Source: a virus
Taxonomy: Duplodnaviria > Caudoviricetes
IMG/VR virus record: IMGVR_UViG_3300046824_000127
Coordinates: 1-54,248 of that record
DNA: 54,248 bases
Direction: 5' to 3' (one strand)
Shown here: positions 2,104 through 32,343 of the stretch, in pieces
Layout: the number at the start of each line of letters is the position of its first letter
Numbering within the stretch: the stretch's first letter is position 1
Position numbers and translations under genes: made by a program
Notes under the pieces: model-generated
Database searches by the model: none
Told to the model about the DNA's origin: nothing
What the model saw: only the letters and a program-made list of their open reading frames with translations

Positions 2104-2345
2104 GCCACGATCCACAGTGTGCGAAGTGCCTCGTTCTCGGGGTGCTCTGCTTCATGATCCGAGAGAGGATCCGACTGCGACGAGAGCCTAAGCTAGTTCA
2201 GCTGACGCTCCTCGCATACGACGCCGCGTCAAGCGGGTCTCACTACACTGACGAGCAGCTGATCGAGGGCGCAAGACTCCTCACCAAAGACGGATGCAGG
2301 GTCCGCATGGTGAAGGGAAGGAAGCACCCGTATGGCCGCCCGTAA
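2100..2345 (+). CDS. Hypothetical protein (CxxC)
   Basis: ATGA coupling. Confidence 0.6.
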   Translation: MSHDPQCAKCLVLGVLCFMIRERIRLRREPKLVQLTLLAYDAASSGSHYTDEQLIEGARLLTKDGCRVRMVKGRKHPYGRP

Positions 2346-2529
2346 CCAGTGCTCGCAGTGCATCAAGCGTGCGAAGCTCTGCAAGATGTGCAAGACGTGG
2401 TTGTGCTACGACCACTACGTCAACCACAGCTGCATGATCGACAAGGGTGACCTTGACGATCCATCGGAGAAGGTGCTCGAGTACCAGATCCGCCGCGACG
2501 AGGAGTTGCGGCGAGAGGAGGACCTGTGA
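2332..2529 (+). CDS. Small zinc-finger protein (AN1/B-box-like)
   Basis: CSQC..CKMC..CYDH..HSC. Confidence 0.65.
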   Translation: MAARNQCSQCIKRAKLCKMCKTWLCYDHYVNHSCMIDKGDLDDPSEKVLEYQIRRDEELRREEDL

Positions 2530-2837
2530 TCCCCGGCGAATTCAAAGCAGAGCTCGATCGCATCTGCAAGCTCTTCGCAGACACCGAGCGGAAGCTCAAC
2601 GAGGAGCTGATCATCAAGAAGAAGTTCGAGTGGAAGAGCGAGGCGCTCGAGTACCCGATATACTTCGAGCCTCTCCGAGGTAGGTGGCGTATCTTCTACG
2701 GCGACAAGCCCATCAACGACTGCTCTGCGGTCGAGAAGGTCGACGTCGCCGAGCAGCTCGCGGCGTTCGAAGAGGCGTACATCGTAGATCTCACCAAGCT
2801 CGCCGATAGGGCGAAGAAGGCAGGTAAGCGTGCGTAA
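2526..2837 (+). CDS. Hypothetical protein
   Basis: GTGA coupling, GGAGG upstream. Confidence 0.75.
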   Translation: MIPGEFKAELDRICKLFADTERKLNEELIIKKKFEWKSEALEYPIYFEPLRGRWRIFYGDKPINDCSAVEKVDVAEQLAAFEEAYIVDLTKLADRAKKAGKRA

Positions 2838-3516
2838 GCACACGGTCAACACGATCCTCGCTGCCGTTGCGGCGGACTACTCCGTCGACAACCGTCGCAA
2901 GATCGCCATGAACGAGTTCGCGCAGGACGTCGGTCGGTGGGCCGAGAAGCAACTCGAGTTCATCAGCCCAATGCCACGCCAGGTGTTCGAGTGGTCTACC
3001 AGCCACAAGTGGGACGACGTCGACGAGGCTCGCAAGCGGATCACGGAGCTCGGCGAATCGGCCTCCATCGACCTGTGCAACGGGTATCGGTGGATCGGGC
3101 AGATGATGGACTGGGTGGCGACCCACATGCAGATCAACATGTCCGTGTGCTTCAAGTGTGCGGACCACGCGACGAAGGTCTATGGAAGTCTCCCGGTCTG
3201 CGAGAAGTGCTTCAAGCTCGTGAACCCGGAGCGACCCGTCAAGAAGGAGGAGATCCGCGAGGTCCAGGATCGGATCGCGGCCGTCTTCGCTCAAGCCGCC
3301 AAGCCTCGTCCTTCGCACCGCGAGGTGTGTTCCAACCGGAAGATCCGGCACTCCTTCGTCATCAAGACGCCGACCGGCTTCGTGATGTACGACGGGACCA
3401 CGGTGCCCGAGATGCACCTCGCCGACAAGTGGACTCGCCATGAGGTCGAGATCGAGCGGGCAGTGTTTGACGACCTCGGCACGCCGCTGTCGATCTTCCG
3501 AGTGGTGAAGCCGTGA
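2830..3516 (+). CDS. Hypothetical protein with internal CxxC...CxxC motif
   Basis: CFKC...CEKC; typical codon usage. Confidence 0.75.
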   Translation: MRKHTVNTILAAVAADYSVDNRRKIAMNEFAQDVGRWAEKQLEFISPMPRQVFEWSTSHKWDDVDEARKRITELGESASIDLCNGYRWIGQMMDWVATHMQINMSVCFKCADHATKVYGSLPVCEKCFKLVNPERPVKKEEIREVQDRIAAVFAQAAKPRPSHREVCSNRKIRHSFVIKTPTGFVMYDGTTVPEMHLADKWTRHEVEIERAVFDDLGTPLSIFRVVKP

Positions 3517-10321: not shown

Positions 10322-11185
10322 ATGATGGAGTTTGCGCGTGAGTATCCGAGGCTGGTGCGCGACACATGGGAGCACGGTGCGCATCGCACAGCTCGCGGTC
10401 GACCGCATCGAGCACTCTTCAACGTGGTGATCGATACCCTCGCGGTTGAGAACACCCTGATCGGCAACGGCTTCTCGAAGAAGTTCGCCATCGCAGAGCT
10501 CATGGCCTATACGGCTGGTTGGGACGACGTCGCCTGGTTGGCGCGGTTCAACAAGAACATCGCGCAGTTCAGTGACGACGGCGTGTCCTTCTACGGAGCG
10601 TACGGTGCCCGAATTTCGGAGTTGATCCAACCTCTCCTCACGCTCCTCACCGAGGATCCTGAGACTCGTCAAGCGGTGTGTCAGATCTACGATCCCACCG
10701 ACCTCATGGCGGAGACGAAGGACAAGCCATGCAACACGATGTTCCAACTCCAGACGATCGGTCACGTTCTCGACATGACGATCTACCAGAGGTCGTGCGA
10801 TCTGGTGTGGGGACTTCCGTACGATCACTTCAGCTTCTCTACGCTCCTGATCCTGTTCGCGCATCAGCTGGGTTTGCAACCTGGGCGCGTGATCAGGATG
10901 ATCGGGAACGCGCATGTCTACGAGCCCGAAGCTGGTTTCGCTAACCACGCTCGCCTGAACAAGGCGATGGAGAAGCAGCAGACTGAACTGTGGTTGCCGA
11001 AGCCCAACTCGCTGCTCGCATTCCGCGAGACCGCGATGATCGCTCGGTATTACATCGAGGCCGCGGACAAGAAGGACTACAAGGCCTTGACCCCAGAAGA
11101 GTTCACACCCGAGGCGCAGCAACTCGTCGAGCAACTCGGGTATCCCATCATCATGGACGAGAGCCACAAGGTGAAGAAGCCATGA
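10322..11185 (+). CDS. Thymidylate-synthase homologue, dCMP hydroxymethylase/methylase type
   Basis: AEL, GAYG, TRQAV, KDKPCN, QRSCDLVWGLPYD, NAHVY; Asp at the substrate-specificity position. Confidence 0.85.
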   Translation: MMEFAREYPRLVRDTWEHGAHRTARGRPHRALFNVVIDTLAVENTLIGNGFSKKFAIAELMAYTAGWDDVAWLARFNKNIAQFSDDGVSFYGAYGARISELIQPLLTLLTEDPETRQAVCQIYDPTDLMAETKDKPCNTMFQLQTIGHVLDMTIYQRSCDLVWGLPYDHFSFSTLLILFAHQLGLQPGRVIRMIGNAHVYEPEAGFANHARLNKAMEKQQTELWLPKPNSLLAFRETAMIARYYIEAADKKDYKALTPEEFTPEAQQLVEQLGYPIIMDESHKVKKP

Positions 11186-12105
11186 GACTGATCCTCGAAG
11201 GTATCGATGGCGTCGGCAAGTCGACCATCCTCGAGCACATCGAGCGCACGCACCGCGTGAAGTCCCTTCACCTCGTGAAGCCGCCGAAGGGCGTGACTCC
11301 GCACAAATGGTCGGATTACTTCCGCCAGTCGTACGACACCGCGGAACTCCTCTCCCGCTCACACATCTCCGAGCGGGTGTACGGAACCCTGATCCGCAAC
11401 AAGTCGCTGATCGACGACTGGCAGAACTGGCTCCTCAACCTTCAGCTCGAGGTCCGCGGCTTCCACATCGCGTACATCGTCCGCGATCTCGCGTTGGTCG
11501 AGGAGCAGATCAAGGCTCGAGGAACCTCCGCGAGCGACTACGACCTGTGGGTCATCAACAACTGGTTCGCGATGGGTCAGGCGTATCTGAAGTACCTGCC
11601 TCCGCATCTCACGACGCAGGTCCACAACGCCGGCCAACTCAGTCAGGCGGTGGATGCCGCCGCGATCGTGGGAACCAGTCCGCTCTTCACCAGCAGCACC
11701 GAGCTGCGTGGGATCGGTTCGCTCACCCCGAAGGTCATCGTCGTCGGCGACGAGTTCACGCTCCGCCGCAGGGATTTCGTTCACGCGAAGCCCTTCGACT
11801 TCGGGGAAGCGTCGAAGCTCCTGTTCGAGGCGCTGCAACAGCTCCGCCACATCTACATCACCAACAGCTTCTACGCTGACCTCGGCGAGATCCGCTCGCA
11901 GTTCCAACTCGGCGACGAGTTGCGTCGGTTCGCTGGCGCGAAGATCATCGCCTTGGGAGTGGAGGCCGCGAAGCGACTCAAGCGGGTCGGGTTCGAGGCC
12001 AATCAGATCGTCCCGCATCCGCAGTACTGGCGGCGCTTCAAGTACGCCGACCGCGGATCCTACGTCAACGACCTGCGTCACGTCGCGGAGAACTTTCATG
12101 GATAA
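11182..12105 (+). CDS. dNMP kinase fused to a uracil-DNA-glycosylase-superfamily domain
   Basis: EGIDGVGKST P-loop and RSHISERVYG; then VIVVGDE, PF, YITN, IALG..A, HPQYW. Confidence 0.75.
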   Translation: MRLILEGIDGVGKSTILEHIERTHRVKSLHLVKPPKGVTPHKWSDYFRQSYDTAELLSRSHISERVYGTLIRNKSLIDDWQNWLLNLQLEVRGFHIAYIVRDLALVEEQIKARGTSASDYDLWVINNWFAMGQAYLKYLPPHLTTQVHNAGQLSQAVDAAAIVGTSPLFTSSTELRGIGSLTPKVIVVGDEFTLRRRDFVHAKPFDFGEASKLLFEALQQLRHIYITNSFYADLGEIRSQFQLGDELRRFAGAKIIALGVEAAKRLKRVGFEANQIVPHPQYWRRFKYADRGSYVNDLRHVAENFHG

Positions 12106-12595
12106 GAGCGCGCTCATCGCGATCCTTGGCCAGTTCGGTGAGGCGGAGGCAATCGCTGAGGTGATCCACGATTGCCTCCCACTCCGTGATCCGCTGCCGT
12201 TCAAGCGGCGCACCGAGCGGAAGACCGTCACGGTTTCCCTCGGCACCGATGGCAACATGGCCGTCGACGTCGAGGTCGGGTTCTACGAGGACGGAAGTCC
12301 GGGCGAGGTCTTCCTCAAGTCCGGCAAGGAGGGCACGGCGATCCGCGACCTGTTCGACGGGATCGCGATCATGCTCTCCGTCTCAATGCAACATGGCGTT
12401 CCGATCTCTGCGTTCCCAGTCCGCGGCCGGGGCAACGAGCTCACGGGCGAGGGGAACGAACTCTTGGACAGCATCTTCGAAGCCGTGGAGGAACTGTGCA
12501 CCACTCCGAAGCCGACTACTTCACAGACCGCGTCCGTGAGTTCATGCTCAAGCACGGAGCACCCATCGGCGTCGGACCCACCCTCGCAGCGCTGA
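12098..12595 (+). CDS. Stand-alone class II RNR C-terminal (TSCPD-like) domain
   Basis: VGFYEDGSPGEVFL..GKEG...AIMLSVSMQHGVP. Confidence 0.7.
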   Translation: MDKSALIAILGQFGEAEAIAEVIHDCLPLRDPLPFKRRTERKTVTVSLGTDGNMAVDVEVGFYEDGSPGEVFLKSGKEGTAIRDLFDGIAIMLSVSMQHGVPISAFPVRGRGNELTGEGNELLDSIFEAVEELCTTPKPTTSQTASVSSCSSTEHPSASDPPSQR

Positions 12596-13044
12596 CTCTT
12601 CGCAAGAGTCTCGTCTACGAAGAGGCCAGCGAGATCCTCCTCGCGGTCCACGACAAGAACGAAGAGGACTTCATCGACGGACTCGGCGACTTCATCTACG
12701 TCGCCGCTGGAACGTGGGTCTCGGTGGCCACGAAGAAAACCCCGATGCGGCACAACCTGAACCCGATCAAGGGTGTCCACAACCTGTGGGATCCTCGGTT
12801 CGTCGACGCGGTCCATCACCGGATCGACAAGACGCTCGAGAGTCTCATCAAGCATCGCTACTCCGAGGTGATCTACCACGCCGTCGCACTGCCCCACGAA
12901 CTGGGGTACGACGTCAAGGGGATCTTCGACGAGATCCACTCGAGCAACATGACCAAGACGCCCACCAAGGGCGATATCAGGGTGCGTGTCAAGGGTCCCG
13001 ACTTCCGGCTCCCCGACCTCACCCGCTTCTTGAGAGGGAAGTGA
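12496..13044 (+). CDS. MazG/HisE-like nucleotide pyrophosphohydrolase
   Basis: EEASE, DGLGDFIYV, EIHSSNMTK, KGPDFRLPDL; GGAGG before GTG. Confidence 0.85.
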   Translation: MHHSEADYFTDRVREFMLKHGAPIGVGPTLAALTLRKSLVYEEASEILLAVHDKNEEDFIDGLGDFIYVAAGTWVSVATKKTPMRHNLNPIKGVHNLWDPRFVDAVHHRIDKTLESLIKHRYSEVIYHAVALPHELGYDVKGIFDEIHSSNMTKTPTKGDIRVRVKGPDFRLPDLTRFLRGK

Positions 13045-13194: not shown

Positions 13195-13314
13195 GTGAAC
13201 CTCTGGGAATACCTGAACGGCTGCGGCTTCTGGCAGTGGATGGGGAACTGCTTCCTCGCTCTCTGCCTGGCTGCCGGTCTCTCAGGTCTGATCCGGATCA
13301 CGGTCAAGAAGTGA
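13195..13314 (+). CDS. Small membrane peptide (not in ORF track)
   Basis: MNLWEYLNGCGFWQWMGNCFLALCLAAGLSGLIRITVKK; GTGA-coupled to the next gene. Confidence 0.5.
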   Translation: MNLWEYLNGCGFWQWMGNCFLALCLAAGLSGLIRITVKK

Positions 13315-13709
13315 GGGACAAGCTTCTCCGCCTGCACATGGACTTCGCGGTTCGCGTTGCTGAGCTGTCGCATTGCGTGCGGCAACAGAACGCGTGCGTG
13401 TTGACGTCCCTCGACGGAGAGCGAGTCCTCGCGTTCGGGTACAACGGGACCTGGAGGGGTGGACCCAACCAGTGCACAGGTCCCAATGAACCCGGGAAGT
13501 GCGAGTGCATCCATGCTGAGGTGAATGCCCTCATCAAGAGTCGGGCGTTCGAACCCTTCGTTGCTTTCGTCACGACGAGCCCCTGTCCGAACTGCGCCAA
13601 GTGCCTGGTGAACTCTGGGTGCAAGATGGTGGTTTGCGGTCAAGCGTACCGCGTAACGGATGGCGTCGTGCTGCTTCAGGACGCGGGAGTGGAGGTTTCC
13701 TTTGTCTAA
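13311..13709 (+). CDS. dCMP deaminase
   Basis: GYNG, HAEVNAL, SPCPNC. Confidence 0.92.
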   Translation: MRDKLLRLHMDFAVRVAELSHCVRQQNACVLTSLDGERVLAFGYNGTWRGGPNQCTGPNEPGKCECIHAEVNALIKSRAFEPFVAFVTTSPCPNCAKCLVNSGCKMVVCGQAYRVTDGVVLLQDAGVEVSFV

Positions 13710-13868: not shown

Positions 13869-14801
13869 ATGACCATGAGAGTCGCAGTCCTCGCCCTCGC
13901 GGCGATCGTCCCGCCGAAGGTCGCGCTTCGGACCGTGGACAAGGAGGATTCGAAGGGAGTCTACAAGGGACTCGTCGAGTCGATCAAGGAGTCCGGCGTC
14001 ATCAACGCGATCGCGGTCAAGGAGGCCAAGATCAAGGACGAGCAGACCGGCGTCGAGCGCGACATGTACCAGATCATCGACGGTCTGCAGCGCTACTGCG
14101 CGAGCGTCGACGCGGGTCTGACGGAGATCCCGGTCCAGATCCTCGACGCCGACGAGGCCGAGGCGCTGGAGCTGCAGATCGAGGGCAACGTCCACAAGAT
14201 CGAGACGAAGCCGATCCAGTACTCGAAGCAGCTGCTCAAGATCCTCGCCGCGCACCCCGAGCGCACCGTGAAGATCCAGGCCGCGCGTCTCGCGAAGAGC
14301 GAGGGCTGGCTGAAGGACAAGCTGCGCCTGCAGAAGCTCGTGCCCGAGGCGCAGACGCTCGTCGACGACGGCAAGATCCCGCTGAGCTCGGCGTACATCC
14401 TCGCCAAGCTCGACGACGACGAGCAGGACGAGTGGCTGGAGAAGGCGCAGACGCTGCCGCCCGACCAGTTCATGCCGCAGGTCGCGAACCGCATCAACGA
14501 GCTGAAGAAGCTCCACAAGGACGACCCGAAGCCGGAGCGCAAGCCGACGCCGCTGATCCGCAAGAAGGGCGAGATCCTCGAGATGTTCGGCAACCTGCCG
14601 GCGGAGCCCAAGGACGACAAGCAGTCCGGCTTCAAGTCGGCGCTCGAGTGGGTCGTCCAGATGGACGAGTCCTCGATCGCCGCGTGGCACGCCAAGGAGG
14701 CGGAGGAGCTGGCCAAGCGCGAAGCGCGCAAGGCCGAGAAGGCGAAGGAGAAGGCGAACAAGAAGTCCGAACTCCCGAGCATCGACGACCTCCTCAAGTA
14801 G
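13869..14801 (+). CDS. ParB/Srx-family protein
   Basis: LVESIKESGVINAI, YQIIDGLQRY, following HTH-like region. Confidence 0.85.
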   Translation: MTMRVAVLALAAIVPPKVALRTVDKEDSKGVYKGLVESIKESGVINAIAVKEAKIKDEQTGVERDMYQIIDGLQRYCASVDAGLTEIPVQILDADEAEALELQIEGNVHKIETKPIQYSKQLLKILAAHPERTVKIQAARLAKSEGWLKDKLRLQKLVPEAQTLVDDGKIPLSSAYILAKLDDDEQDEWLEKAQTLPPDQFMPQVANRINELKKLHKDDPKPERKPTPLIRKKGEILEMFGNLPAEPKDDKQSGFKSALEWVVQMDESSIAAWHAKEAEELAKREARKAEKAKEKANKKSELPSIDDLLK

Positions 14802-15749: not shown

Positions 15750-17645
15750 ATGCCGGCAGTCAAGCTCAAGGCGGGCGGATATCTAATCCCCGTAGAGCTG
15801 ACAGAAGTAGGCGAGAACTGGGAGCTGGAGTTCCGTTACAACCGCGCGCTTCTGGACGAGATCAAGTCCATGGAGGGCGCTAGATGGAACCCCAACCGTC
15901 GTGTATGGACGGTCAAGCGCTCCGCGCGCAATAAGTTCTCCCTGGCGTTCCTGCTCGGGAAGCCAGTGTTCGCTCCGTACGACGCGCCTCTCGTCTACGT
16001 GAAGCCGAACCGCCCCGAACCCTGCGGGCACAAGATGCACCCCAACGGTCCGTGCCCGGAGTGCGGTTGTGCTTTCTGCTTGGGTAAGCACCAGATGGTG
16101 ATGCTGAGTCACGTCATGACTCGCAAGCGGTGCATCCTCGCAGGCAAGCCGGGAACCGGCAAGACGCTGGTCGCGATGGAGTTCATGGAGTTGACAAACG
16201 AGCGCCACGATCTACCGTGGTACATCGCTCCCGACTCTGGTCTTCAAGCCGTGATCGCGGACTTCCGCAAGCATCGCCTTGGTGTCCAACCGAGATTGAT
16301 GACGTACGACGGGTTGAAGAAGGAGCTGGCGACATGGAAGCCAGGAGTTCCTCCTCCCCGTCGAGTGATCATGGATGAGTCCTCTCGCGTCAAGGGTCAC
16401 AAGACCCAACGATCCGAGGCCGCGCTCTACCTCTCCCAGAACATGGAGAACTACTGGAAGGGCGACGAGTACTTGATCGAGATGTCCGGAACCCCGGATC
16501 CCAACGAGCCGGTGGATTGGTGGATGCAGTGTGAGATCGCGCGTCCCGGTTACCTCAAGGAACCGAGCTGGTATGCGGAGCGCAAGCGCTTGGCGATCAC
16601 CGTCGAGCGGCAAGGGATGAACGGCAACTATCCTCACCACGTCCAGTGGAAGGACGGTGGTGAGTGTGTCACCTGCAAGGAGAAGCGATCCGTCGCTGAG
16701 GCGCAACTTGAGGGCATCCGTCAGGAACTCGAGAGCATGCACAAGCTGGCGCTCGAAGCTGGCGTGCAGATGTCGGATGAGAAGAAGAAGGAAGTAGAAG
16801 ACCTGATCAACGTCAACAAGCGTGGTCAGATGGAACAGATGCTGATGAAGGAGTTCGACTCCGAGAACTGTGAGTACTGCAAGGGTACGAACCACGTTCC
16901 GGATGAGGTCGGTCTCCTCTCGAAGCGACTTGACGGGTTGGTGCTGAAGGTCGAGAAGCCTGATCTCCCCGCGAAGATATACCGCCGCATCCAATGCGAG
17001 GTCCCACCCGATCTGCTCCGCGCCGCTGAGATGATCGCGATGACTAGCGAGAACGCGCTCGACGCGCTCAACCGGTTGCGCCAGCTGAGCGACGGGTTCC
17101 TGTATGACAAGGAGACCCATGAGCCGAAGTACGCCGGCGGTGCGAAGGAGAAGATCCTCCGCAACCTCCTTGACGAATATTCTGACCAGGGCCGTGTCAT
17201 CATCTACGCGGCGTACACCGCTTCTATCAACCGGATCAAGGCCGTCTGCGAAGAAGAAGGATGGTTGGTCTGGAAGTATGATGGTAAATCTCTCGAGACC
17301 TGGGACGGTCGAGATTTCCAGAGCGCCTATAAGGCTTTCCAAGACAGAAAGGGTTTCCCTCCAAAGATTGCTTACGTCGCTCACCCGAAGAAGGGAGCGA
17401 TGGCTCTCACACTCACAGCTGCCGTCTGCGCTATCTTCTTTTCCAATGACTTTGAGGGTGAGAGTCGGGAACAGGGTGAAGATCGTATTCACCGTATCGG
17501 AATGGACCTCGAGCTAGGCGCGACGATCATCGACATCCTGAACCTGGGCACTGACCTCCTCGTTCTCGAGCGACTGCTCACAAAGCGAGCGATGTCTGGT
17601 CTCACGATCGCGCACGTCACCAGCGCGCTGAAGCAGGCGGCATGA
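15750..17645 (+). CDS. SNF2-like SF2 helicase
   Basis: PGTGKT, IMDESS, MSGTP, QGEDRIHRIG; N-terminal ARWNP..WTV domain. Confidence 0.9.
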   Translation: MPAVKLKAGGYLIPVELTEVGENWELEFRYNRALLDEIKSMEGARWNPNRRVWTVKRSARNKFSLAFLLGKPVFAPYDAPLVYVKPNRPEPCGHKMHPNGPCPECGCAFCLGKHQMVMLSHVMTRKRCILAGKPGTGKTLVAMEFMELTNERHDLPWYIAPDSGLQAVIADFRKHRLGVQPRLMTYDGLKKELATWKPGVPPPRRVIMDESSRVKGHKTQRSEAALYLSQNMENYWKGDEYLIEMSGTPDPNEPVDWWMQCEIARPGYLKEPSWYAERKRLAITVERQGMNGNYPHHVQWKDGGECVTCKEKRSVAEAQLEGIRQELESMHKLALEAGVQMSDEKKKEVEDLINVNKRGQMEQMLMKEFDSENCEYCKGTNHVPDEVGLLSKRLDGLVLKVEKPDLPAKIYRRIQCEVPPDLLRAAEMIAMTSENALDALNRLRQLSDGFLYDKETHEPKYAGGAKEKILRNLLDEYSDQGRVIIYAAYTASINRIKAVCEEEGWLVWKYDGKSLETWDGRDFQSAYKAFQDRKGFPPKIAYVAHPKKGAMALTLTAAVCAIFFSNDFEGESREQGEDRIHRIGMDLELGATIIDILNLGTDLLVLERLLTKRAMSGLTIAHVTSALKQAA

Positions 17646-17881
17646 TGGTCGCGAAGCCTGAGCCGATCTTCCACGATGATGGCAAGACGCCGTGGATGGC
17701 ATTGGGTTGCCCGATGAACGGGTGCAAGCACAAGTTCAAGGTCACGTGGATGTACGAGAGCAAGCTCATCTCCTTTCGTAGGATGAACTACTACCTGATG
17801 CTGATGATCAAGAAGCACATGATGGCGGAGCACAAGAGTCCTCCTCCCCAGATCATCATCGATGACCCGGAGGCACCGTGA
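17642..17881 (+). CDS. Hypothetical C2H2-like protein
   Basis: CPMNGC...HMMAEH. Confidence 0.6.
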   Translation: MMVAKPEPIFHDDGKTPWMALGCPMNGCKHKFKVTWMYESKLISFRRMNYYLMLMIKKHMMAEHKSPPPQIIIDDPEAP

Positions 17882-18390
17882 TCACCTTCCTCCCCAGTCG
17901 GACCTTTACGGTCTGCGCGAAAGCGTTGGACGACAAGCGACTCCTCTCGCAGGTCGGTGAGGCGCGCATGATCCTTGAGGCCATTCTCGAGGGGAAGCAG
18001 ATCGGTCAACCGGCATTCGACATGTGGCGTCCGTATCCCGGTCACCTTGCGATCTACGGCAAGATCATGAGTGACGAACGCCATGTTCGCTGGGGAACGC
18101 GGACCGAGGCATTCTTCGTACCTCACATCCCTCAGTGGTTCTACGGGTTGGGTCACGCAGGTGAGAGCGAGATCCACATCGACCAGAAGGACTGGAACCG
18201 GTGGGACCCGATGAAGGTCAAGGATCCGCCGTGGCTCGGAGACAAGCGGTTGCACATCTCCCACATCCGTCGACTCTTCGACAAGGACCCTACGTTCTAC
18301 GCGAAGTGGCATGACATCGTCAACCATCCCGCCACGTACTGTTGCATCGGTTGCAACTACTGGTGGCCGACGCATGTGGGTGTCGTGTGA
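17878..18390 (+). CDS. Pyrimidine-dimer glycosylase/endonuclease V-like protein
   Basis: TFLP...LDDKRL..QVGEA, PA..MW, PPWLG...H.SH...KDP.FY. Confidence 0.8.
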   Translation: MITFLPSRTFTVCAKALDDKRLLSQVGEARMILEAILEGKQIGQPAFDMWRPYPGHLAIYGKIMSDERHVRWGTRTEAFFVPHIPQWFYGLGHAGESEIHIDQKDWNRWDPMKVKDPPWLGDKRLHISHIRRLFDKDPTFYAKWHDIVNHPATYCCIGCNYWWPTHVGVV

Positions 18391-18916: not shown

Positions 18917-19407
18917 GAAGAAGCGGCCGGACGACCCGGATGATGGAGCAAGCGGAGAAGGAAGCACAGGCCGGCAAGGCGGTCTACGTGATCTTCGCTA
19001 ACGCGGCACTGGCGGCGATGTACAAGACGCCGGAGCGTGAGGCGATGGGCATCAAGTTCGAGACGCCGTCCTCTTTGCCGAACTTCAATTGGCGACGGTG
19101 GACCAACCCAGGCGCCAATGAGAACTGCGTGTTCCTGGCAGATCACTTCACGATCGAGAACCACTGGTCCACCGTCTTGGAGATGGCACACCGCTGGGAT
19201 GCAACGACCACCTTCGACATCGATGACTTCGTCCGAAAGGAAGGCGGAGACTTCAGTTTCGAGGGACACGTGGTCTCGGTAGTCCGCAAGAAGCGAAGCG
19301 GTGAGATCCGCTACGTGGTCGAAGATGACCGTGGTCTCCTGTTCATCTTCCGCGGTGAACAACTCACGTACGCTGGTCATGGGACCGTGAGGAGTTCAGA
19401 AGCGTGA
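18913..19407 (+). CDS. Hypothetical protein: P-loop-like N-terminus plus SH3-like C-terminus
   Basis: RRSGRTT followed by VYVI; C-terminal beta-rich KEGGDFSFEG...RYVVE. Confidence 0.6.
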   Translation: MRRSGRTTRMMEQAEKEAQAGKAVYVIFANAALAAMYKTPEREAMGIKFETPSSLPNFNWRRWTNPGANENCVFLADHFTIENHWSTVLEMAHRWDATTTFDIDDFVRKEGGDFSFEGHVVSVVRKKRSGEIRYVVEDDRGLLFIFRGEQLTYAGHGTVRSSEA

Positions 19408-21590
19408 GGTTCCTCGACTCTGAGACCGCTGGGTTTGTCGGACCCGCCGTTATCTGGCAGCACGCGATCGACAACGATCCGATCCAGATCCACCACGTGT
19501 GGCGGCGACCGGTCCGTGAAACCCTGCAGCTCTTGGAGAACTTCACCGGCGAGTCGATCTGCGGGTTCAACCTGACGTTCGACTGGTTCATGGCGAACAA
19601 GGACTACAACGTCTTCCGTCATTTCCAGAACCTGAGCGATCCTCCTACGATCGCGGAGTGGAGAGCCAATGAGCTCAAGGGATCCCGTGAAGCGCTCTGC
19701 CTCAAGCCCGCTTCTGCTCTTGACCTCTACCTGTATGCTCTGCGCGGGCCGATGCAAGTGCTTATGGACCGCGATCCAATCGTTATCAGACGGGTGCCGA
19801 AACTACTCGCCACTCTTCTCTGTGAAGAACTGGCCAGACTCGTCCACTTCGACAAGATCCACTTCAAGTTCGGCAAGGACTGGTACGTCGATCCGGAGTC
19901 CAAGGATCCCGACTTCCCTGACATCGTGCTGGCCTTCGGAGCCACCGCCGCTCTGAAGCCGATCATCCAGCACGTCTTCGGGATCGAGACCATCGACTTC
20001 CCGCTTCCCGACGGACTCAAGACAACTGATGACAAGAAGACGCAGTACTTCCCCTGGAGCGTCAAGCGCCAGTGGCCGGAGAAGCTTCCTGGTCTGATCG
20101 ACTATTGGTACACCAACAAGAAGGCGATCGAGTATGCCACAGAAGACGTCGAACACCTCCGGCGACTTTGGTATCACTGGGGACGACCCGAACCGGGAGA
20201 CGATGACTCGATCCTTGCGTGCGCTGTTGCGGCAACAAGATGGAAGGGATTCAATCTCGATCGAGACCGAGCCCTCGCCTTGTACAAGTCCCAACTGGAC
20301 CTCGCCCGCTCAAGTGTCCGCTCTCCTACGGCAGTTCGATCCGGACTTCTGCCGCTGCTGTCAGACGTCGAAAGGCTTGTCGTCCAAGACACGCGCGCTG
20401 AGACTCTTGAACAGCTGGTTCACTGGAATGTCGATGGATCCCATACGGGAGGCTTGGACGACGGTACTGCGATCGTCGGAGATCATCCTGCTGCGAAATA
20501 TGCTGCAGGAGTCATTGGTGCCCGGACTGCCGAGAAGCGTGCTAACCTCGCCGGTAAGCTCTGGCGAGTTGGAAGCTTTCATCCGGATTTCAAGATCCTT
20601 GGGGCGAAGTCCGCTCGAATGTCTGGAGCTGGTGGTCTCAATGCACATGGCATTGATAACTGGGGACCCATGCGCTCCGTGTTTCCTTTCGCATTCCCCG
20701 GCGAAGGGTTTTCTGGAGGAGACTTCGACTCCTTCGAGCCCAACATAGGTTGTGCCGTCTACGGTGACAGCAACCTTGAGCGAGACCTCAAGTCCGGTAG
20801 GAAGATCCACGGTCTCTTCGGTGAGATGGCGTACGAGCTGGACTACTCGATCGTTGTGGCCAACAAGGCCGCTGGCTCGCTCTACGACCGTGCGAAGAAG
20901 GGTTACCTCGCGTGGTCCTATGGCGGGCAGGCGAAGAAGATCGCTACCGTGCTCGACAAGCAGGAGAAGGAGATCACTGCCTTCTTCATGAGAATGGGGC
21001 AACGCTATCCCCAGATGCTAGCGTACCGAGAGAGACGCGCGATGGAGTTCTGCTCCATGCGGCAACCGCATGGGATCGGTACCCGCGTAGTCTGGCATGA
21101 TCCGGCGGAGTTCGTCAACTCCCTGCTGGGTGACAAACGGTACTTCACGCTTGAGAACCAGACCTGCAAGGCGCTGTTCAATCTGGCGCAGGAGATGCCG
21201 CGGGAGTTCATGGATCTCGGGAGGTTCCAGGTCAAGCGTCGCGATCGTACGCAGACCGCGACCGGAGCCTGTCAGTCAGCGCTTTACGCAGCGGCGTTCG
21301 GGATCCAAGGCTCGAACATGCGAGCCGCGCTGAACCACGAGATCCAGTCCACCGGTGCGCGCATCACTAAGGCGACGCAACGCCGAGTCTGGGACCTACA
21401 GCCGTGTGGGATCCACGCGTGGCGTGTGCGTATCATGCAGGTCCACGACGAACTCCTCGTAGTCCATGACAACATCGCTGACGCTGTGTACATCACTGTG
21501 ATGGGCAGCATCGAGCATTTCAAGACCGTGGTCCCACTCCTGGCCATCACCTGGCGCAAGGAACTTCCAGACTGGAGCTACATGAAATGA
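19404..21590 (+). CDS. polA: Family A DNA polymerase with 3'-5' exonuclease domain
   Basis: LDSET, FNLTFD, YATED; motif A DFDSFE; motif B KKGYLAWSYG; NHEIQS; motif C VHDE. Confidence 0.92.
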   Translation: MRFLDSETAGFVGPAVIWQHAIDNDPIQIHHVWRRPVRETLQLLENFTGESICGFNLTFDWFMANKDYNVFRHFQNLSDPPTIAEWRANELKGSREALCLKPASALDLYLYALRGPMQVLMDRDPIVIRRVPKLLATLLCEELARLVHFDKIHFKFGKDWYVDPESKDPDFPDIVLAFGATAALKPIIQHVFGIETIDFPLPDGLKTTDDKKTQYFPWSVKRQWPEKLPGLIDYWYTNKKAIEYATEDVEHLRRLWYHWGRPEPGDDDSILACAVAATRWKGFNLDRDRALALYKSQLDLARSSVRSPTAVRSGLLPLLSDVERLVVQDTRAETLEQLVHWNVDGSHTGGLDDGTAIVGDHPAAKYAAGVIGARTAEKRANLAGKLWRVGSFHPDFKILGAKSARMSGAGGLNAHGIDNWGPMRSVFPFAFPGEGFSGGDFDSFEPNIGCAVYGDSNLERDLKSGRKIHGLFGEMAYELDYSIVVANKAAGSLYDRAKKGYLAWSYGGQAKKIATVLDKQEKEITAFFMRMGQRYPQMLAYRERRAMEFCSMRQPHGIGTRVVWHDPAEFVNSLLGDKRYFTLENQTCKALFNLAQEMPREFMDLGRFQVKRRDRTQTATGACQSALYAAAFGIQGSNMRAALNHEIQSTGARITKATQRRVWDLQPCGIHAWRVRIMQVHDELLVVHDNIADAVYITVMGSIEHFKTVVPLLAITWRKELPDWSYMK

Positions 21591-21925: not shown

Positions 21926-22206
21926 ACCGCTGGGCAGTGCTGCTCGAGAAGCAATCCAAGGACGGTGACACCAAGACAAGATGGTGCATCGCCGGGGCTC
22001 GCAAGCACGACATCGACTACATCGAAGCTACCTGCCGTATCAGAGGCAAGGAGTTCGGTGTCACCAAGAACGGCGGACCAGTGGCGTTCATCGCCCAGGC
22101 CGTCGTGATCTGGGAGACCGCGGAAGACAAGCTCGACGCTGAGACCCGCGTGATCATCGAGAAGTGGGCCAACGGTGACTTTGTCATCGATGCGAGTACA
22201 GCATGA
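21922..22206 (+). CDS. Hypothetical protein
   Basis: ATGA coupling. Confidence 0.65.
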   Translation: MNRWAVLLEKQSKDGDTKTRWCIAGARKHDIDYIEATCRIRGKEFGVTKNGGPVAFIAQAVVIWETAEDKLDAETRVIIEKWANGDFVIDASTA

Positions 22207-23138
22207 ACTTCGAACCGATGCTTGCACAACCGCTGGACTACGAGTACGACGAGGAGACTCTCCAGCCGAAGTTCACCGAACAGCAGTTCCAGTGGGACGC
22301 TGAGGTCAAGCTCGACGGCGTCCGCATGCTCGTCTACCTGGAGCGGAACTGCAACAACTCCCGTGCTCTGACTAGAGTCAAGGGCAAGCACACCGGGGAG
22401 TACGCCAACAAGCTCGGGCATCTCGCATGGGCGAGGACCGACGGGTTGGTGGAGAGCGGGACAACGGTCCTCGACGGTGAGGTCACGTGGGGCAAGAACT
22501 CGCGGACCACGATGGAGATCCTCGGTTGCCACGCGAACGAGAGTCTCATCCGTCAAGCGCGAACCGAACCACTGAAGTTCACCGCGTTCGACATCCTCAT
22601 GGGAGGCGGTCGGGACTATCGCTACAAGACCTACGAGCAGCGTCGCGACATCCTCACAGCGGTGATGTTCAACCTGAACGTCCAGTTTCCTGGCGAGGTC
22701 GATTGGGTGATGCCCGGACCCGCGAAGGCGTTATGGGCTCGCGGCGGCGAGGGCATCATGCTCAAGGAGCCGATGCACAACTACCAGACCGGACGACGAT
22801 CCGAGTCCTGGCTCAAGGTCAAGCGCTTCAAGAAGTACATCGCGGTGGTGACCGGTTACACGGCCGGAAAGCAGGGCAAGACGGGTCAGATGGTAGGACT
22901 CATGGGTTCTCTCTGGCTCGGGATGTTGGATCACCGTGGGATCCTGTTGCCGGTCGGATCAGCCGGCACTGGGTTCGGTATGTCAGAACGTTCGCCGTCC
23001 GCATGGCCAGTCCGCACTGTGGTGGAAGTGGCTTCATCGGACGTAACCGAGGATGGCAAGCTGTGGCATCCCAGGTTCCTCAAACGACGTCCCGATCTGA
23101 GGGTCGAGGACGCACTACTGTCACAGCTGGAGGCCTGA
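22203..23138 (+). CDS. ATP-dependent DNA ligase
   Basis: KLDGVR, LDGE, AFDIL, EGIMLK, WLKVK, AGTG, HPRF. Confidence 0.95.
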   Translation: MNFEPMLAQPLDYEYDEETLQPKFTEQQFQWDAEVKLDGVRMLVYLERNCNNSRALTRVKGKHTGEYANKLGHLAWARTDGLVESGTTVLDGEVTWGKNSRTTMEILGCHANESLIRQARTEPLKFTAFDILMGGGRDYRYKTYEQRRDILTAVMFNLNVQFPGEVDWVMPGPAKALWARGGEGIMLKEPMHNYQTGRRSESWLKVKRFKKYIAVVTGYTAGKQGKTGQMVGLMGSLWLGMLDHRGILLPVGSAGTGFGMSERSPSAWPVRTVVEVASSDVTEDGKLWHPRFLKRRPDLRVEDALLSQLEA

Positions 23139-25588: not shown

Positions 25589-25935
25589 TATTCAGCCACA
25601 CCGTTGGTGAGGTTCCCGTGCCAGTGCGTCGGGCCTCCCTTGAACTCGTGAGCATGGACGCTGGGCGTAAGGGTGAGATTAGGGAACTCACCCTCACCGT
25701 GCCAGATGTAGAGATCGTCATTGAGACGGTACGCCGGGGCAAACCGAACGAACCTCGCCATGATGCAGTCACCGTCTCCCTTAGGGCAAGTGAACACCAC
25801 CGCCTCGAACCCATCCGCACGCGTCATGTGAGCCGCAGGGTCCTCAGCGAGTACTACTCTCAATTGACCTTCCTCGGCCTGATGAGCGGCAAGTAACCTA
25901 CCCAAGAGTCCGCAACCTTCGCGACGATCATCCAC
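25588..25935 (-). CDS. DUF6527-like protein (start uncertain)
   Basis: FTCP...C, W, LTLTPSV, HWHGNLTNG. Confidence 0.6.
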   Translation of the reverse strand: MDDRREGCGLLGRLLAAHQAEEGQLRVVLAEDPAAHMTRADGFEAVVFTCPKGDGDCIMARFVRFAPAYRLNDDLYIWHGEGEFPNLTLTPSVHAHEFKGGPTHWHGNLTNGVAE

Positions 25936-28900
25936 GTCCCGGCGGAGATCTTCGCGGTAGACTGCAATCGCGGGGTCTTGACTGTGATGTCCTCGTCCCC
26001 ATTCCCATCGAAGTCCGTCGTCTTGTAGAGTCGCATCGAGATGTTGTTCTTGTCAGCGGCGTCGGACTTCACGACCGCGAACCCGAAGGGGTTGTCGATA
26101 GGGAGAACCCATGCGGTGCCGTCGTTGGCTACGTAGACCGGGAGAACCTGACCGTCAAAGACCTTGTTGGTTCCCATCTTCCGACCGATACGGTTTCCAG
26201 CAGAGGTCGAGAATGCCGACCCGACTTCCGTCAGCGACATGCTCGCATAGTGGTCCTTGTTTCGATCCGGAGAGACGTAGACGTCGTGGTTCGTCCCGGT
26301 CCAGAAGCCGGCGTAGTGTGGCATGAGGTAGGCGTACTTCGACTCGTTCGAGAACGTGGGGTGGTTCGGCTTCTTGAACGTATCCGGCCAGTGACCCGAG
26401 TCGGGATCCGCCGTCACGCCAGCGAGGAACGCACCACGGTAGTCGTAGTCCTGACCGGAGTCTGTCGGAGCATTGATGAGCTTCCACGCTTGGAACTTGG
26501 ACTCCTGATCCACGGTAAGCGCGGTGTTCCACCTGGTATCGTTCGGATCAGGAGTGTCATCGAAGCCGGACGGATCTCCGTTGTCCTCGACCTGCATCGT
26601 CCCTACCATCGTCCCACCGCGAGCGGAGGTCGTGCTAGAGCTTCCACCCTTGGTCGCGTAGAACGTACCGTCCTCTGCCTTGTGGACGACGACCTGATCG
26701 CCTTCCTGGATCGGAGTGCCAGAGATATTCTGGACCTTGACCTCAGTCTCGTAGACGTCTCCCGACGCGTTGTTGCTCTTATAGAGTTTCGCGTTGAATA
26801 CACCACCGATCGGACCCGCCGGAGTCTCCGCGGTCGTTGCGACACCCACATGGGTCTGTTTCTCGGTGAGACCAAGATCGAGGGCAGAGACCTCGATGAT
26901 CTCCGCGATGTCGTCGCCCGCTGAGAGTGAGAGCGCGGCAGGTGCTGTGTCCCCGGTATCGTCGAGGTAAGCGAAATTGGATTGAGTGTGGTTACCGACA
27001 ACCACCGGGGTCCACAGCAACGCCGTGATCTGGTTCTCCTCCGTGTCATGCTCCAGCTGTTCGATCATCGCGTTTGTGACCAGCTCGGACAACGTGGACT
27101 TCACATCGTCGTACACTGTCATCGCGATCGCGTCGAGGTCCCCGATGACTCGCAGCTTCCGCCACGCGTTTGCCCATCGGTAGAACCAGAACGTAGCGGT
27201 TTTCTGAACGAGGGTCTTGTGACGGTATGCCCAGATCTCGAGGTCCCGCTTCTTGCGACCGTACGCCAGGATCGATGCAGCGTCCTTGTAGTGTAGACGC
27301 TCTGGGTGTTGCTGGCTACCACGCCGATGCCACGCCACCCACAGGTCGTTGGTGATCTGCGTGGTCTCGGTCGACGTGACCTGAACCGTTCCCTCGAGGG
27401 TCGTGTCCTCGTCGTACGTGAACGGGATGGATGTAGGAGCAGCGGATAGATACTTGAGGTACGCGGTCGATCCCAATACCGAGAGACCGCATCGACCTTG
27501 GAAGGCGATGTCCCCGGCAACCTGCAGCGCGTCCTTCCTGGCGGTGAACGAGAAGTTCATCGGGTATTTCACGCACGCGGTCTTCACGGCGAGGAACGAT
27601 GCTGCATCTACCGTAATCCCGGCTTCGGTCATCAGGTTCGAGATGATGTCTGAGACGTTCGATCCCACCGTGGTGACCAGCGTCACGAAGAGCTCGTCCT
27701 GCCATCCCGTCCCGCGGGCGGACAAGGGCTTCTCCAACGTGATCGAGGTGCAGTGCCTTCCAGCGATCACGTCGTTCAGGTTCACCGTGTAGAAGTCGGC
27801 AGGAAGCACAACCAGTTGTCGCTCCCGACCGCCACGACTGTCCAGTTGAACCTCTCGCCAGGCACGGACCTGGAGTACAGAAGTCGATGGGACATCATTG
27901 GCGACGTATACCACGTTGGTGACCAGTCGAATAGAAGTTCCCGCTGGCCATAGAGTATCGTTGACATCCAGCACACCGCGGATGTCGGCTCGCGCTCCCG
28001 TCGTGATGTAGTATAGTCCCGACGCGACGATCCAGGGGAACTGTCCACGGGTCGCGTCTCCCTTCTGGTAGAGGATGTAGTTCTTGTAACCCACGAACGA
28101 TGGCACCGTGAAGTTCCCGTACAGAACGCTTCCGCCCGGAACCTCGATGCTGTTGATCAGACCGGAAGACGACAGCTCAGCGGTGTCGAGAAGGAAGAGC
28201 CAGTTGCCAGCGAGGATCTTACCTTGCGTATCCCATGCGGAGTACCGCGGGTCAGCTTCCCACGTGTTGTTCTCATTGGGATCCTGCTCGATCGAGGTCA
28301 ACTCAGACCTATCGTTCGAGTAGATGATGCCCTTGCTCTCGTTCCTCGAGGTGATGTGGAAGCGGAGGATCACGACAGGGTCGGTGGCGATAGACTCGAA
28401 CTTCCCGGTCAGGTACTCGTTTCCGATCTCCACAGTGACCAGGGTGTTGAGCGGGAAGGTCACGTCGTCTGCGACCTCGATGTCCACATGGTCAAACGTG
28501 GGTTGGAGCTCGCGGATCAACGTGCCCTTCGGGGCATCCACTACGAGGACCGCTGGTGCGTCGACCGGCGTGCCGTAGCATCGTGGCCACGGCTTGTTCC
28601 ACGCGAACTCCTGCAAACCGCTCGACTCGTCAGGCGCGAACGGGACCTCGGTATCGGAGTTGGACTCGTAGAAGGCGATGATGTCGAGCTCGAACGTCCT
28701 ACTGTCTTCGCTCCAAACGATAGGTGATCCGATTCTACCTACCATCAGCTCTACCGCATCGGCCACGTTGCCATCGAAGATCTGGAGAACCCTGGCGGTC
28801 CTTCCTTCGAGCCGCGTATTCCCGATCATCGTCAGGAAGTAGAAGTCCTCATCGCTGAGTTTGACGGAGATCGAACCGGCGGTTGCCGGAGCGCTTTCCG

Positions 28901-29069
28901 CGATCTGCATGTTCGCGTTGCCGAGCTCCATGATCCGACCGTCGGTACCGTCGAGGTCGCGATCCGCGAAAGTGAGCTTCCCGGCTCCGGTGTCGATCTC
29001 AACCAGGATGGCGGACTCATGTCCCTCGGTCGTCGCCGCAATCAGGTTGGCTGCGCTGACGCTTCTCAT
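25860..29069 (-). CDS. Tail tip/baseplate hub protein
   Basis: 1069 aa downstream of tape measure; PWPRCYG motif typical of hub proteins. Confidence 0.7.
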   Translation of the reverse strand: MRSVSAANLIAATTEGHESAILVEIDTGAGKLTFADRDLDGTDGRIMELGNANMQIAESAPATAGSISVKLSDEDFYFLTMIGNTRLEGRTARVLQIFDGNVADAVELMVGRIGSPIVWSEDSRTFELDIIAFYESNSDTEVPFAPDESSGLQEFAWNKPWPRCYGTPVDAPAVLVVDAPKGTLIRELQPTFDHVDIEVADDVTFPLNTLVTVEIGNEYLTGKFESIATDPVVILRFHITSRNESKGIIYSNDRSELTSIEQDPNENNTWEADPRYSAWDTQGKILAGNWLFLLDTAELSSSGLINSIEVPGGSVLYGNFTVPSFVGYKNYILYQKGDATRGQFPWIVASGLYYITTGARADIRGVLDVNDTLWPAGTSIRLVTNVVYVANDVPSTSVLQVRAWREVQLDSRGGRERQLVVLPADFYTVNLNDVIAGRHCTSITLEKPLSARGTGWQDELFVTLVTTVGSNVSDIISNLMTEAGITVDAASFLAVKTACVKYPMNFSFTARKDALQVAGDIAFQGRCGLSVLGSTAYLKYLSAAPTSIPFTYDEDTTLEGTVQVTSTETTQITNDLWVAWHRRGSQQHPERLHYKDAASILAYGRKKRDLEIWAYRHKTLVQKTATFWFYRWANAWRKLRVIGDLDAIAMTVYDDVKSTLSELVTNAMIEQLEHDTEENQITALLWTPVVVGNHTQSNFAYLDDTGDTAPAALSLSAGDDIAEIIEVSALDLGLTEKQTHVGVATTAETPAGPIGGVFNAKLYKSNNASGDVYETEVKVQNISGTPIQEGDQVVVHKAEDGTFYATKGGSSSTTSARGGTMVGTMQVEDNGDPSGFDDTPDPNDTRWNTALTVDQESKFQAWKLINAPTDSGQDYDYRGAFLAGVTADPDSGHWPDTFKKPNHPTFSNESKYAYLMPHYAGFWTGTNHDVYVSPDRNKDHYASMSLTEVGSAFSTSAGNRIGRKMGTNKVFDGQVLPVYVANDGTAWVLPIDNPFGFAVVKSDAADKNNISMRLYKTTDFDGNGDEDITVKTPRLQSTAKISAGTWMIVAKVADSWVGYLPLIRPRKVN

Positions 29070-32000: not shown

Positions 32001-32329
32001 CCGCTCTCGCGCCGGAACATGCGGATCCGGATACCGACCGTGTCCTGCAGCATCACGGCAACGACCGGAAGTCCCGCGGCATCCGCGGTCAGGTAGTAGT
32101 TCCACTGACCAGGGTTAGCCGGGGTACTCGGGGTGAAGACGATTTCCTCGGAACCCCATGTGAGACCGAAGTCCGAAGATGAACGTGCACAGACCTTGTT
32201 GCCAGTTGCGCTTTGGTACAGCGTCCATACGATGGCACCGATCCGCACCATGCGGTCGTTTGAATACGCGCTAATGTTTCCATTAGCCGAATTCGACTCG
32301 ATCGTTACGTTCGTCCACGTAGTCGGCAT
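29066..32329 (-). CDS. Large tail protein: BNR/beta-propeller domains, repeat stalk, distal-tail-like C-terminus
   Basis: SSDFGLTW and SSDNGTTW Asp-boxes; about nine INF-type repeats. Confidence 0.7.
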   Translation of the reverse strand: MPTTWTNVTIESNSANGNISAYSNDRMVRIGAIVWTLYQSATGNKVCARSSSDFGLTWGSEEIVFTPSTPANPGQWNYYLTADAAGLPVVAVMLQDTVGIRIRMFRRESGSWVAKGTVTPASLEPSVRIHLFQHPTVPNSWLLTWIDTTASNPMRYSVSQNDMSTWGAPASIINMGTSGNTGGQSWLLMDSTGAIDGVCIVRTGAEAMWRVQLTSGWSGGTASITTTDISSSMGGPYSAGLGPRGIHLAWVPGTSDMRIIYRDYQSGARNDIIRTRLRTSGTWGGSDSNGYLDASYHDCRVMYYSATSWKIWSDMKNGGADTTHFSIKSSDKSTGSWVITEFLDEAKDQYGISILSDGSTSRLKAGDLIGYFNNNDNDWKVFVSSDLDSGTYPKTISQTIRFNQTLSLQGFIIRSVVASAVTRVQGGGRQIIKSAAGILWHVYYEGGAVKVAYSSDNGTTWTVTVVGPTWVPAGMAMCIGAGDAPALVLTRPSNDDFYIYLWNGTSWVLKKQLNEPIAESGSFQIMYTGSTYMMVYAYITSTSDRRVYSRTSADLVTWAAGVLVKNGDGSGTGPHVYRRVASCLDASGNVHAVYSIRSSSTHKLYYRKYSSGAWGTEELIATGYGGNNITDFHSGISIAVDDRGYVHVACRVRGTLYTGRVRIAYFQRTTAWGAVEYVHTDVDDDQDYPSLSLNLRTPVICWASASLGLNVTMAKRGSDASWTYFQITANARDSVQTVHGPGYGSSLNYTRGVVGSMRGSEEYFYSTDIISGNAAAMETTLNFTSILSTQRRVLTNTINFTSALSAVRSLTLRNTINFFSRLNFARTRAMTNNIDFTQHLDAGVNVQPITQTVHFTSTLSGVKSPTLDIHQSINFESRLNRVVSATMTNSIAFSGAFVVNVVKRQVFSQVINFTQSLTYNASLKKTMSGIINFIVGLVAMKADEGCQPGFTPERPLPASEDDVNIVYLIGPLPNLSLTVQLKRPEYGNSRRQALQVKVNRTRGGKLRPHSRTPTYEPQSITFESLSYLKLEQVRNFLRVCKGKKIYYIDEKNRKWIGYITTSDIDLAEEGRDRGGQFALEFEGILAS

Positions 32330-32343
32330 GTTCACCCCGAAAG

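Follow-up and report, generated by a model that had tools for sequence, protein, structure and literature searches.

The 54,248-nucleotide virus record IMGVR_UViG_3300046824_000127, the whole of which is called the window here, encodes a 307-residue protein (P0001; positions 11182-12105, + strand) in which two domains are joined. The N-terminal domain (residues 1-169; 11182-11688, +) is a P-loop kinase of the YorR/thymidylate kinase type, and the C-terminal domain (residues 170-307; 11689-12102, +) is a minimal, cysteine-free domain with the uracil-DNA glycosylase (UDG) fold. The C-terminal domain belongs to the UDG superfamily and lies outside family 4 of that superfamily. The gene adjoins one for a thymidylate synthase (TS) homologue with the predicted signature of a 5-hydroxymethyl-dCMP (5hm-dCMP) synthase, and there is about an even chance that the fusion serves a T4-like pathway of cytosine replacement as a bifunctional enzyme, combining a modified-dCMP kinase with a uracil-type DNA glycosylase. 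The window is a complete virus record with direct terminal repeats, and was assigned to the siphoviruses by the presence of a tape-measure protein, a large terminase and a portal.

A kinase joined to a minimal glycosylase fold

A preliminary description of this DNA had read the gene as a nucleotide kinase fused to a UDG-like domain, and that two-domain observation is confirmed. Its coordinates for the open reading frame (ORF) were also correct: the frame is open throughout its 307 codons and stop, and its ATG shares the tetranucleotide ATGA with the TGA stop of the upstream TS homologue. The start call is sound, as the same initial methionine is shared by all 19 close homologues (49-87% identity, 301-315 aa). 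A fusion of this kind might instead arise as an artefact, through an assembly join, a frameshift or read-through of two genes, and nothing was found in favour of this. The homologue counts refute it: the 19 close homologues lie on separate contigs, and 628 proteins related to P0001 at E<=1e-3 emerged when 1.84 billion representatives were scanned exhaustively with HMMER. Full-length genes also occur in four cultured phages, and the two-domain structural model is confident. Among the 150 of the 628 relatives that were listed, nearly all were about 290-360 aa long and most were matched over their full length; the two-domain architecture is therefore that of a family and not an accident.

The kinase fold of the N-terminal domain, with its GxxGxGK(S/T)-type P-loop, was recovered by structure and by sequence profile, which bears out the P-loop kinase of the preliminary description. 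The VIA structural comparison gave Z 16.7 against YorR (2axp) and about 13.5 against thymidine monophosphate (TMP) kinases. A profile of 60 diverse relatives (A2), run against PDB sequences, matched YorR of phage SPbeta over residues 1-159 (E 1.4e-25), and the Pfam family Thymidylate_kin was matched by 46 of the 60 relatives when these were scanned singly. The P-loop itself, GIDGVGKS (G7-S14; 11200-11223, +), is conserved in the 60 relatives, with E6, G7, G12 and K13 invariant. A DR(Y/H)-type motif is a hallmark of thymidylate-kinase-like P-loop kinases; its arginine (R59) is invariant, and the residue before it is Asp in 144 of 149 relatives and Ser in the P0001 lineage. Of the 34 window ORFs that were scanned, no other encodes a nucleotide kinase.

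Searches with P0001 alone against Pfam, NCBIfam, PHROGs and PDB sequences returned weak P-loop or kinase matches and nothing for the C-terminal domain. Profiles of relatives were therefore needed, and the placement of P0001 in the UDG superfamily rests on those relatives because P0001 alone has no match to the Pfam UDG family PF03167. The A2 profile matched the family-4 UDG TM0511 with E 2.1e-9, and UdgX and a Thermus UDG with E of about 4-5e-9, in each case within residues 167-270. PF03167 was matched individually by 24 of the 60 diverse relatives, the best with E 1.4e-14.

Structure prediction led to the same superfamily. The AlphaFold model of the whole protein had a mean predicted local distance difference test (pLDDT) score of 87.9 and a predicted template modelling (pTM) score of 0.87. 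Structural comparison of this whole model was filled by kinase matches and was uninformative on the C-terminal domain, which was therefore folded alone (pLDDT 92.2). Foldseek then returned 37 matches at E<=1e-3, all of them UDGs (TMq 0.64-0.75). A VIA scan of 48,161 chains, independent of Foldseek, placed twelve members of the UDG superfamily first (Z 12.8 to 8.2), among them Thermus family-5 UDG (2d3y, Z 12.8), TM0511 (12.2), UdgX (11.8) and the UDG domain of the phiLo DNA polymerase PolA (10.0). The four-strand parallel alpha/beta fold of the UDGs was thus found by both methods, and the UDG-superfamily C-terminus of the preliminary description is borne out by profile, Pfam, Foldseek and VIA.

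The motifs were placed through HMMER alignments of P0001 and its relatives to TM0511; all lie on the + strand, and the motifs that had been named from the sequence (GDE 189-191, PF 204-205, YITN 225-228, LG..A 258-262 and HP 279-280, besides the P-loop) are all present. A remnant of motif A, G189-D190-E191 (11746-11754), aligns its VG-D190 with the VGE of VGEGPG in TM0511, and position 190 is Asp or Glu in 145 of 149 relatives. P204-F205 (11791-11796) aligns with the PF of the family-4 element GxPFvGxaG. The YITN segment (11854-11865) aligns with yitN of TM0511, so that N228 corresponds to the base-reading Asn of family-4 UDG; it is invariant in alignments A2 and A3. ALGVEA (A257-A262; 11950-11967) aligns with ALGATA, and motif B, HPQYWRRF (H279-F286; 12016-12039), with HPSYLLR. 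N228, G259, H279, P280 and R285 are invariant across the 60 relatives of A2, and both the base-reading Asn and the HP(S/A)xxxR-type motif B of family 4 were found in P0001. The domain was placed outside family 4 because the full motif A and the Fe-S cluster are both missing.

Genomic context and predicted cytosine modification

The TS homologue directly upstream (10322-11185, +) carries residues that point to cytosine hydroxymethylation. In the accessible part of a 2026 study (PMC13326640; E. coli ThyA numbering), selection of dCMP is ascribed to Asp at N177, hydroxymethylation goes along with an acidic residue at L143, and 5-hydroxy-dCMP synthases are recognised by Asn at D169. At positions L143, C146, D169 and N177 the window protein has D/C/D/D (motifs KDKPC, QRSCD and GLPYD), which by these criteria is the signature of T4-type 5hm-dCMP synthases. 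When aligned, its GLPYD corresponds to GVPFN in true synthases and to the Asp in MilA, a CMP hydroxymethylase.

The association of the fusion with such homologues was followed in 80 viral loci that were fetched by the kinase P-loop pattern and not selected for TS. A hidden Markov model (HMM) of the C-terminal domain found a UDG-like domain in 54 of them; these, together with the window, make up the 55 rows compared below. A same-strand TS homologue was present in 51 of the 54 loci, a count that includes one clade of 25 similar contigs and is not phylogenetically independent. In 50 of the 51 the TS match begins between -60 and +407 nt from the end of the kinase gene, and the remaining locus (L001) resembles the window in having the TS match upstream. 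The TS homologues of the fetched loci, 62 in all, are without exception Asp-type, and the D/C/D/D signature occurs in 61 of 63 when that of the window is counted. The link between fusion and modification operons, for which co-occurrence with Asp-type TS homologues had been proposed as a check, therefore holds, with all but one of the 51 TS homologues adjacent. In many loci the flanking DNA that was fetched, up to 6 kb from the kinase gene, encodes a dCMP deaminase, and a dCMP deaminase and a MazG-type pyrophosphohydrolase usually stand near the fusion.

This gene context suggests that the kinase domain probably phosphorylates a modified nucleotide, converting 5hm-dCMP to 5hm-dCDP as gp1 does in T4. 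For the related 5-hydroxy-dCMP (5ho-dCMP), conversion to 5ho-dCDP by the RB69 homologue of gp1 is reported in the accessible part of PMC13326640, where a TS homologue and a dNMP kinase were also co-expressed in E. coli.

Full-length copies of the fusion are present in four cultured phages, namely Actinomycetia phage DSL-LC01, Stenotrophomonas phage AXL3 (gp29), Pseudoxanthomonas phage PW916 and Bacillus phage G (gp315), and in each an Asp-type ‘thymidylate synthase’ and a dCMP deaminase are encoded close by. In their records the fusion is either labelled ‘thymidylate kinase’ or left unannotated. AXL3 also has ThyX, so its ‘thymidylate synthase’ is free for another role. According to the accessible part of the AXL3 report (PMC7504290), two of 37 restriction enzymes cut the DNA of this phage, both at sites composed of A/T only, the 35 tested enzymes with G/C in their sites failed, and altered G/C bases were inferred by its authors. 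In phage G, the genes gp313-gp319 (locus L083) cluster an alpha-glucosyltransferase, the kinase-UDG fusion, a dCMP deaminase and a D/C/D/D-type TS homologue; the alpha-glucosyltransferase lies two genes from gp315, motif A of which reads AQNPG. This cluster leads to the prediction of glucosylated 5-hydroxymethylcytosine (5hmC) in phage G DNA. In the PW916 record the kinase-UDG gene (L084, locus positions 2211-3296) is wholly unannotated, and the Asp-type TS homologue is labelled ‘deoxyuridylate hydroxymethyltransferase’, which is contradicted by the Asp at its N177 position.

Downstream of P0001, all on the + strand, the nucleotide module of the window continues with an ORF for a 165-residue TSCPD-domain protein (12098-12595; Pfam E 3e-9), the start of which overlaps the end of the P0001 gene by 8 nt. 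TSCPD is usually part of ribonucleotide reductases. There follow a MazG/PRA-PH-type nucleotide pyrophosphohydrolase, a candidate dCTPase (12496-13044), and a dCMP deaminase (13236-13709). A ParB-like protein with ParB_N and HTH_ParB domains (13869-14801) and an SNF2-type helicase (15750-17645) stand between this module and the genes for a pyrimidine-dimer glycosylase of the T4 endonuclease V type (Pfam Pyr_excise; 17878-18390), a family-A DNA polymerase (19404-21590) and an ATP-dependent DNA ligase (22203-23138). Neither a second UDG (PF03167) nor ThyX was found in the window genome. On the opposite strand, within the structural module and adjoining the portal gene, an ORF for a 613-residue protein (43815-45656, -) has 185 C-terminal residues that match a PHROG ‘methyltransferase’ (E 2.4e-52), and may encode a virion-associated or DNA-modifying methyltransferase. 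Two long ORFs downstream of the tape-measure gene (25860-29069 and 29066-32335, both -; 1069 and 1089 aa) had no PHROG match at E<=1e-3.

Possible roles of the glycosylase-fold domain

The UDG domain may be a working monofunctional glycosylase, for which the sequences allow an even chance at best. This reading draws on several observations. The pocket and catalytic-type positions of family 4 are all retained in the window lineage and in 23 of the 54 loci. The C-terminal domains with the full set of key residues (24 rows) are basic, with a median isoelectric point (pI) of 8.55, 17 of the 24 above 8 and that of the window at 9.69; the median of the remaining 31 is 6.12, with one above 8. Similar mini-domains also occur alone: stand-alone viral clusters of 127-146 aa resemble the C-terminal domain (Atlas scores 0.93-0.94), and in two of three such clusters PF03167 is found in 18-30% of members. 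In the accessible part of a study of thymine-modified phages (PMC13697223), the UDG domain fused to PolA excises dU, and in phiLo its catalytic residues are a Glu and a His equivalent to the motif-A acid and the motif-B His.

Free-standing mini-UDG genes were also seen in three loci with kinase-only genes, about 1.1 kb downstream of the kinase gene and with GINPS and HPSPLN motifs (stop-to-stop frames of 122-130 aa: L054, 2619-3008; L059, 7611-8000; L061, 7635-8000). The kinase genes of these loci encode YorR-like proteins of 185-190 aa, and no TS homologue was detected in the three loci. Another candidate for a free-standing domain, L027, was rejected when its ORF listing showed a full-length fusion of 332 aa. 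No short close relative of residues 170-307 turned up when one was sought, and one protein of 133 aa (P0020) may be a fragment.

In a working enzyme, F205, N228 and H279 would form the pocket that receives a flipped-out uracil-type base, and D190 would be the acid that activates water. The candidate substrates are uracil, from the dUMP-rich pool that the deaminase would make, and 5-hydroxymethyluracil (5hmU), from deaminated 5hmC. Their removal would rid the cytosine-substituted genome of bases open to attack by host enzymes, and the resulting apurinic/apyrimidinic (AP) sites would pass to host enzymes or, in the window phage, to the endonuclease V-type lyase, PolA and ligase. The fusion would thereby tie uracil surveillance to the enzyme that feeds in the modified nucleotide, much as the PolA-UDG fusions do in thymine-modified phages.

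Several observations weigh against an active glycosylase, beginning with the failure of P0001 alone to match any UDG model. Motif A of family-4 UDGs is GE(A/G)PG with a catalytic Glu, and four cysteines of these enzymes bind a 4Fe-4S cluster. In P0001 the corresponding motif is VGDEFT, in which the acid is kept and the Pro-Gly is missing. P0001 has no Cys, as the preliminary description had noted, and no Cys-majority column was found among the conserved columns of 149 relatives. The domain comprises 138 residues, compared with about 190-205 in family-4 enzymes (some 55 fewer), and by alignment its ALG-to-HP stretch is about 12 residues shorter than that of TM0511; parts that may touch DNA are thus missing from it. 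In one clade of 313-aa proteins (25 of the 55 rows) Pro replaces the motif-B His and R285/F286 are lost, while the UDG-like domain, acid, Phe and Asn are kept, and six further rows are degenerate and yet full length. Of the 26 loci without a UDG-like domain, 11 have a TS homologue; kinase-only forms thus adjoin the same TS homologues, which implies that the kinase needs no UDG-like domain, and the shared ancestry of the clade of 25 contigs limits what the locus counts can say. The excision-repair toolkit suggested earlier is present in the window in that the endonuclease V-type, PolA and ligase genes are real, but it is not a general partner of the fusion: an endonuclease V-type gene was found in three of 43 related virus records and in none of the 20 with a completeness of 90% or more. 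A dedicated repair toolkit as a general feature was therefore dropped.

The 313-aa clade (L020, L023, L025, L031, L033-L036, L038-L044, L051, L052, L058, L062, L064, L065, L073-L075 and L077) is distinct in other respects. Its motif A reads MLCDKGP, PPPLYHMQ takes the place of PHPQYWRRF, its C-terminal domains are acidic, and the adjacent TS homologue reads GMAND.

The retention of the domain in these degenerate rows is what would be expected if it were a pseudo-enzyme, that is, a module of the kinase for binding bases or nucleotides, for regulation or for scaffolding, in which no glycosidic bond is cleaved. It might, for example, sense a uracil-type nucleotide for pool balance, or hold the kinase in a nucleotide-synthesis or replication complex. 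Such a non-catalytic role is a serious rival, if on balance an unlikely one, and the 313-aa clade leaves room for the nucleotide-sensing domain that the preliminary description had named among its three options. Across the 55 rows the pocket residues are kept more often than the motif-B His (acid in 50, Phe205 in 52, Asn in 51; His in 27). That a mononucleotide fits the fold is shown by the crystal structure of UdgX with dUMP (6ajp). The UDG of vaccinia virus, D4, has a processivity role, and D4 in the polymerase holoenzyme 8q3r matches the C-terminal domain with Z 7.2. The pTM score of the whole protein may also point to a fixed two-domain body. The retention of every catalytic-type residue in the window lineage and 23 further loci, the basic character of those domains, the similar mini-domains that occur alone and the kinase-only relatives beside the same TS homologue all speak against a purely structural or regulatory module.

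A retained uracil-type pocket might alternatively serve in sanitising the nucleotide pool. The domain would then act as an N-glycosidase on a free uracil-type deoxynucleotide (5hm-dUMP or dUMP) produced by the dCMP deaminase, and the fused kinase would pass on only the cytosine derivative. The proximity of a dCMP deaminase to the kinase gene in many loci is consistent with this, as is the fusion itself, which puts the pocket where mononucleotides are handled. However, to our knowledge no member of the UDG superfamily hydrolyses mononucleotides, the canonical domains are basic, as for DNA binding, and the Arg conserved in motif B of family 4 has its aligned counterpart in R285, all of which make a pool sanitiser improbable.

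Two further roles would place the domain on DNA. As the TS signature predicts that the phage replaces its cytosine, the domain could be a cytosine-DNA glycosylase that attacks unmodified host DNA, spares the 5hmC genome and frees host nucleotides. T4-type phages destroy cytosine-containing DNA by other means, and an engineered cytosine-excising UNG needs Asp at the base-reading position. That position is Asn in 51 of the 55 rows, N228 is retained in P0001 and the Asn-to-Asp change was seen in no lineage, so an attack on host DNA, and with it the discriminator of unmodified DNA offered in the preliminary description, appears very improbable. P0001 might also be a DNA-base kinase, in which the UDG fold would serve as a base-flipping reader instead of a hydrolase, drawing a 5-hydroxymethyl-pyrimidine from the duplex, and the P-loop domain would phosphorylate its hydroxymethyl group for hypermodification. 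It would then be the cytosine-side counterpart of the 5-hydroxymethyl-dU (5-hmdU) DNA kinases of thymine-hypermodifying phages; both this function and the reading role of the fold that goes with it would be a long shot.

Significance and comparison with known systems

Both folds of P0001 were already known, and phage polymerases with fused UDG domains were reported in 2025-2026. The tie between a UDG fold, a nucleotide kinase and 5hm-dCMP synthases was not found in the full-text searches made, and databases call such proteins ‘thymidylate kinase’. These searches, which paired UDG with kinase, hydroxymethylase or phage, turned up no account of a kinase-UDG fusion, and the accessible part of PMC8670742 mentions neither a kinase nor a glycosylase.

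Cytosine replacement is known mostly from T-even phages. Here it is predicted in many unrelated phages, including siphoviruses of about 50 kb, actinophages, Xanthomonadaceae phages and Bacillus phage G, where the pathway would run through a different kinase with a glycosylase-fold domain that annotation pipelines have missed. If the UDG domain is active, it would be the smallest natural UDG architecture, of about 135 residues and without a metal cluster, and a second independent case in which phages build uracil surveillance directly into the machinery that makes modified DNA. If it is inactive, it would show clearly how a repair fold can be taken over as a module for nucleotide binding or scaffolding. 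In either event, the pairing of the kinase-UDG fusion with an Asp-type TS homologue offers a compact marker for predicting cytosine-modified, restriction-resistant phage DNA in metagenomes, and AXL3 provides a cultured system in which that marker can be tested.

Among known kinases, P0001 shares its kinase fold, P-loop and the Arg of the DRx motif with YorR of Bacillus phage SPbeta (2axp, 3kb2) and with thymidylate kinases. YorR comprises 173 residues and, unlike P0001, has no C-terminal domain, and the Asp of the DR motif is replaced by Ser in the P0001 lineage. The functional analogue is the dNMP kinase gp1 of T4, with the expected common role of phosphorylating the 5hm-dCMP made by a phage TS homologue. 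No detectable sequence relation between gp1 and P0001 was seen; P0001 is of the YorR/TMP kinase type, and gp1 lacks a UDG domain.

The C-terminal domain resembles the family-4 UDGs (Thermotoga TM0511, 1l9g/1vk2; Thermus UDGA, 1ui0; Sulfolobus, 4zbx) in its alpha/beta fold (Z 12.2, root-mean-square deviation 3.2, 134 residues aligned), in the profile homology given above and in the aligned motif-A acid, PF, Asn, ALGxxA and HP...R. It differs from them in its 138-residue length, its lack of Cys and of the 4Fe-4S cluster, its GDEFT motif A, its shorter segment before motif B and its fusion to a kinase. UdgX of Mycobacterium smegmatis (6ail and others) is similar in fold (Z 11.8) and by profile (E about 4e-9); it has an Fe-S cluster and an insertion with H109, which cross-links to DNA, and by length and alignment that insertion is absent from P0001.

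The PolA-UDG fusions of phiLo and YerA41 (9qhs), as described in the accessible part of PMC13697223, place a UDG fold inside a phage enzyme of DNA modification or replication, as does P0001. The phiLo domain matches that of P0001 with Z 10.0 and has its motif-A acid and motif-B His at the same positions. In the PolA-UDG proteins the partner is a replicative polymerase, the genomes are thymine-modified and activity has been demonstrated, whereas the UDG fold of P0001 is joined to a nucleotide kinase, belongs to genomes for which cytosine modification is predicted, and has a predicted activity.

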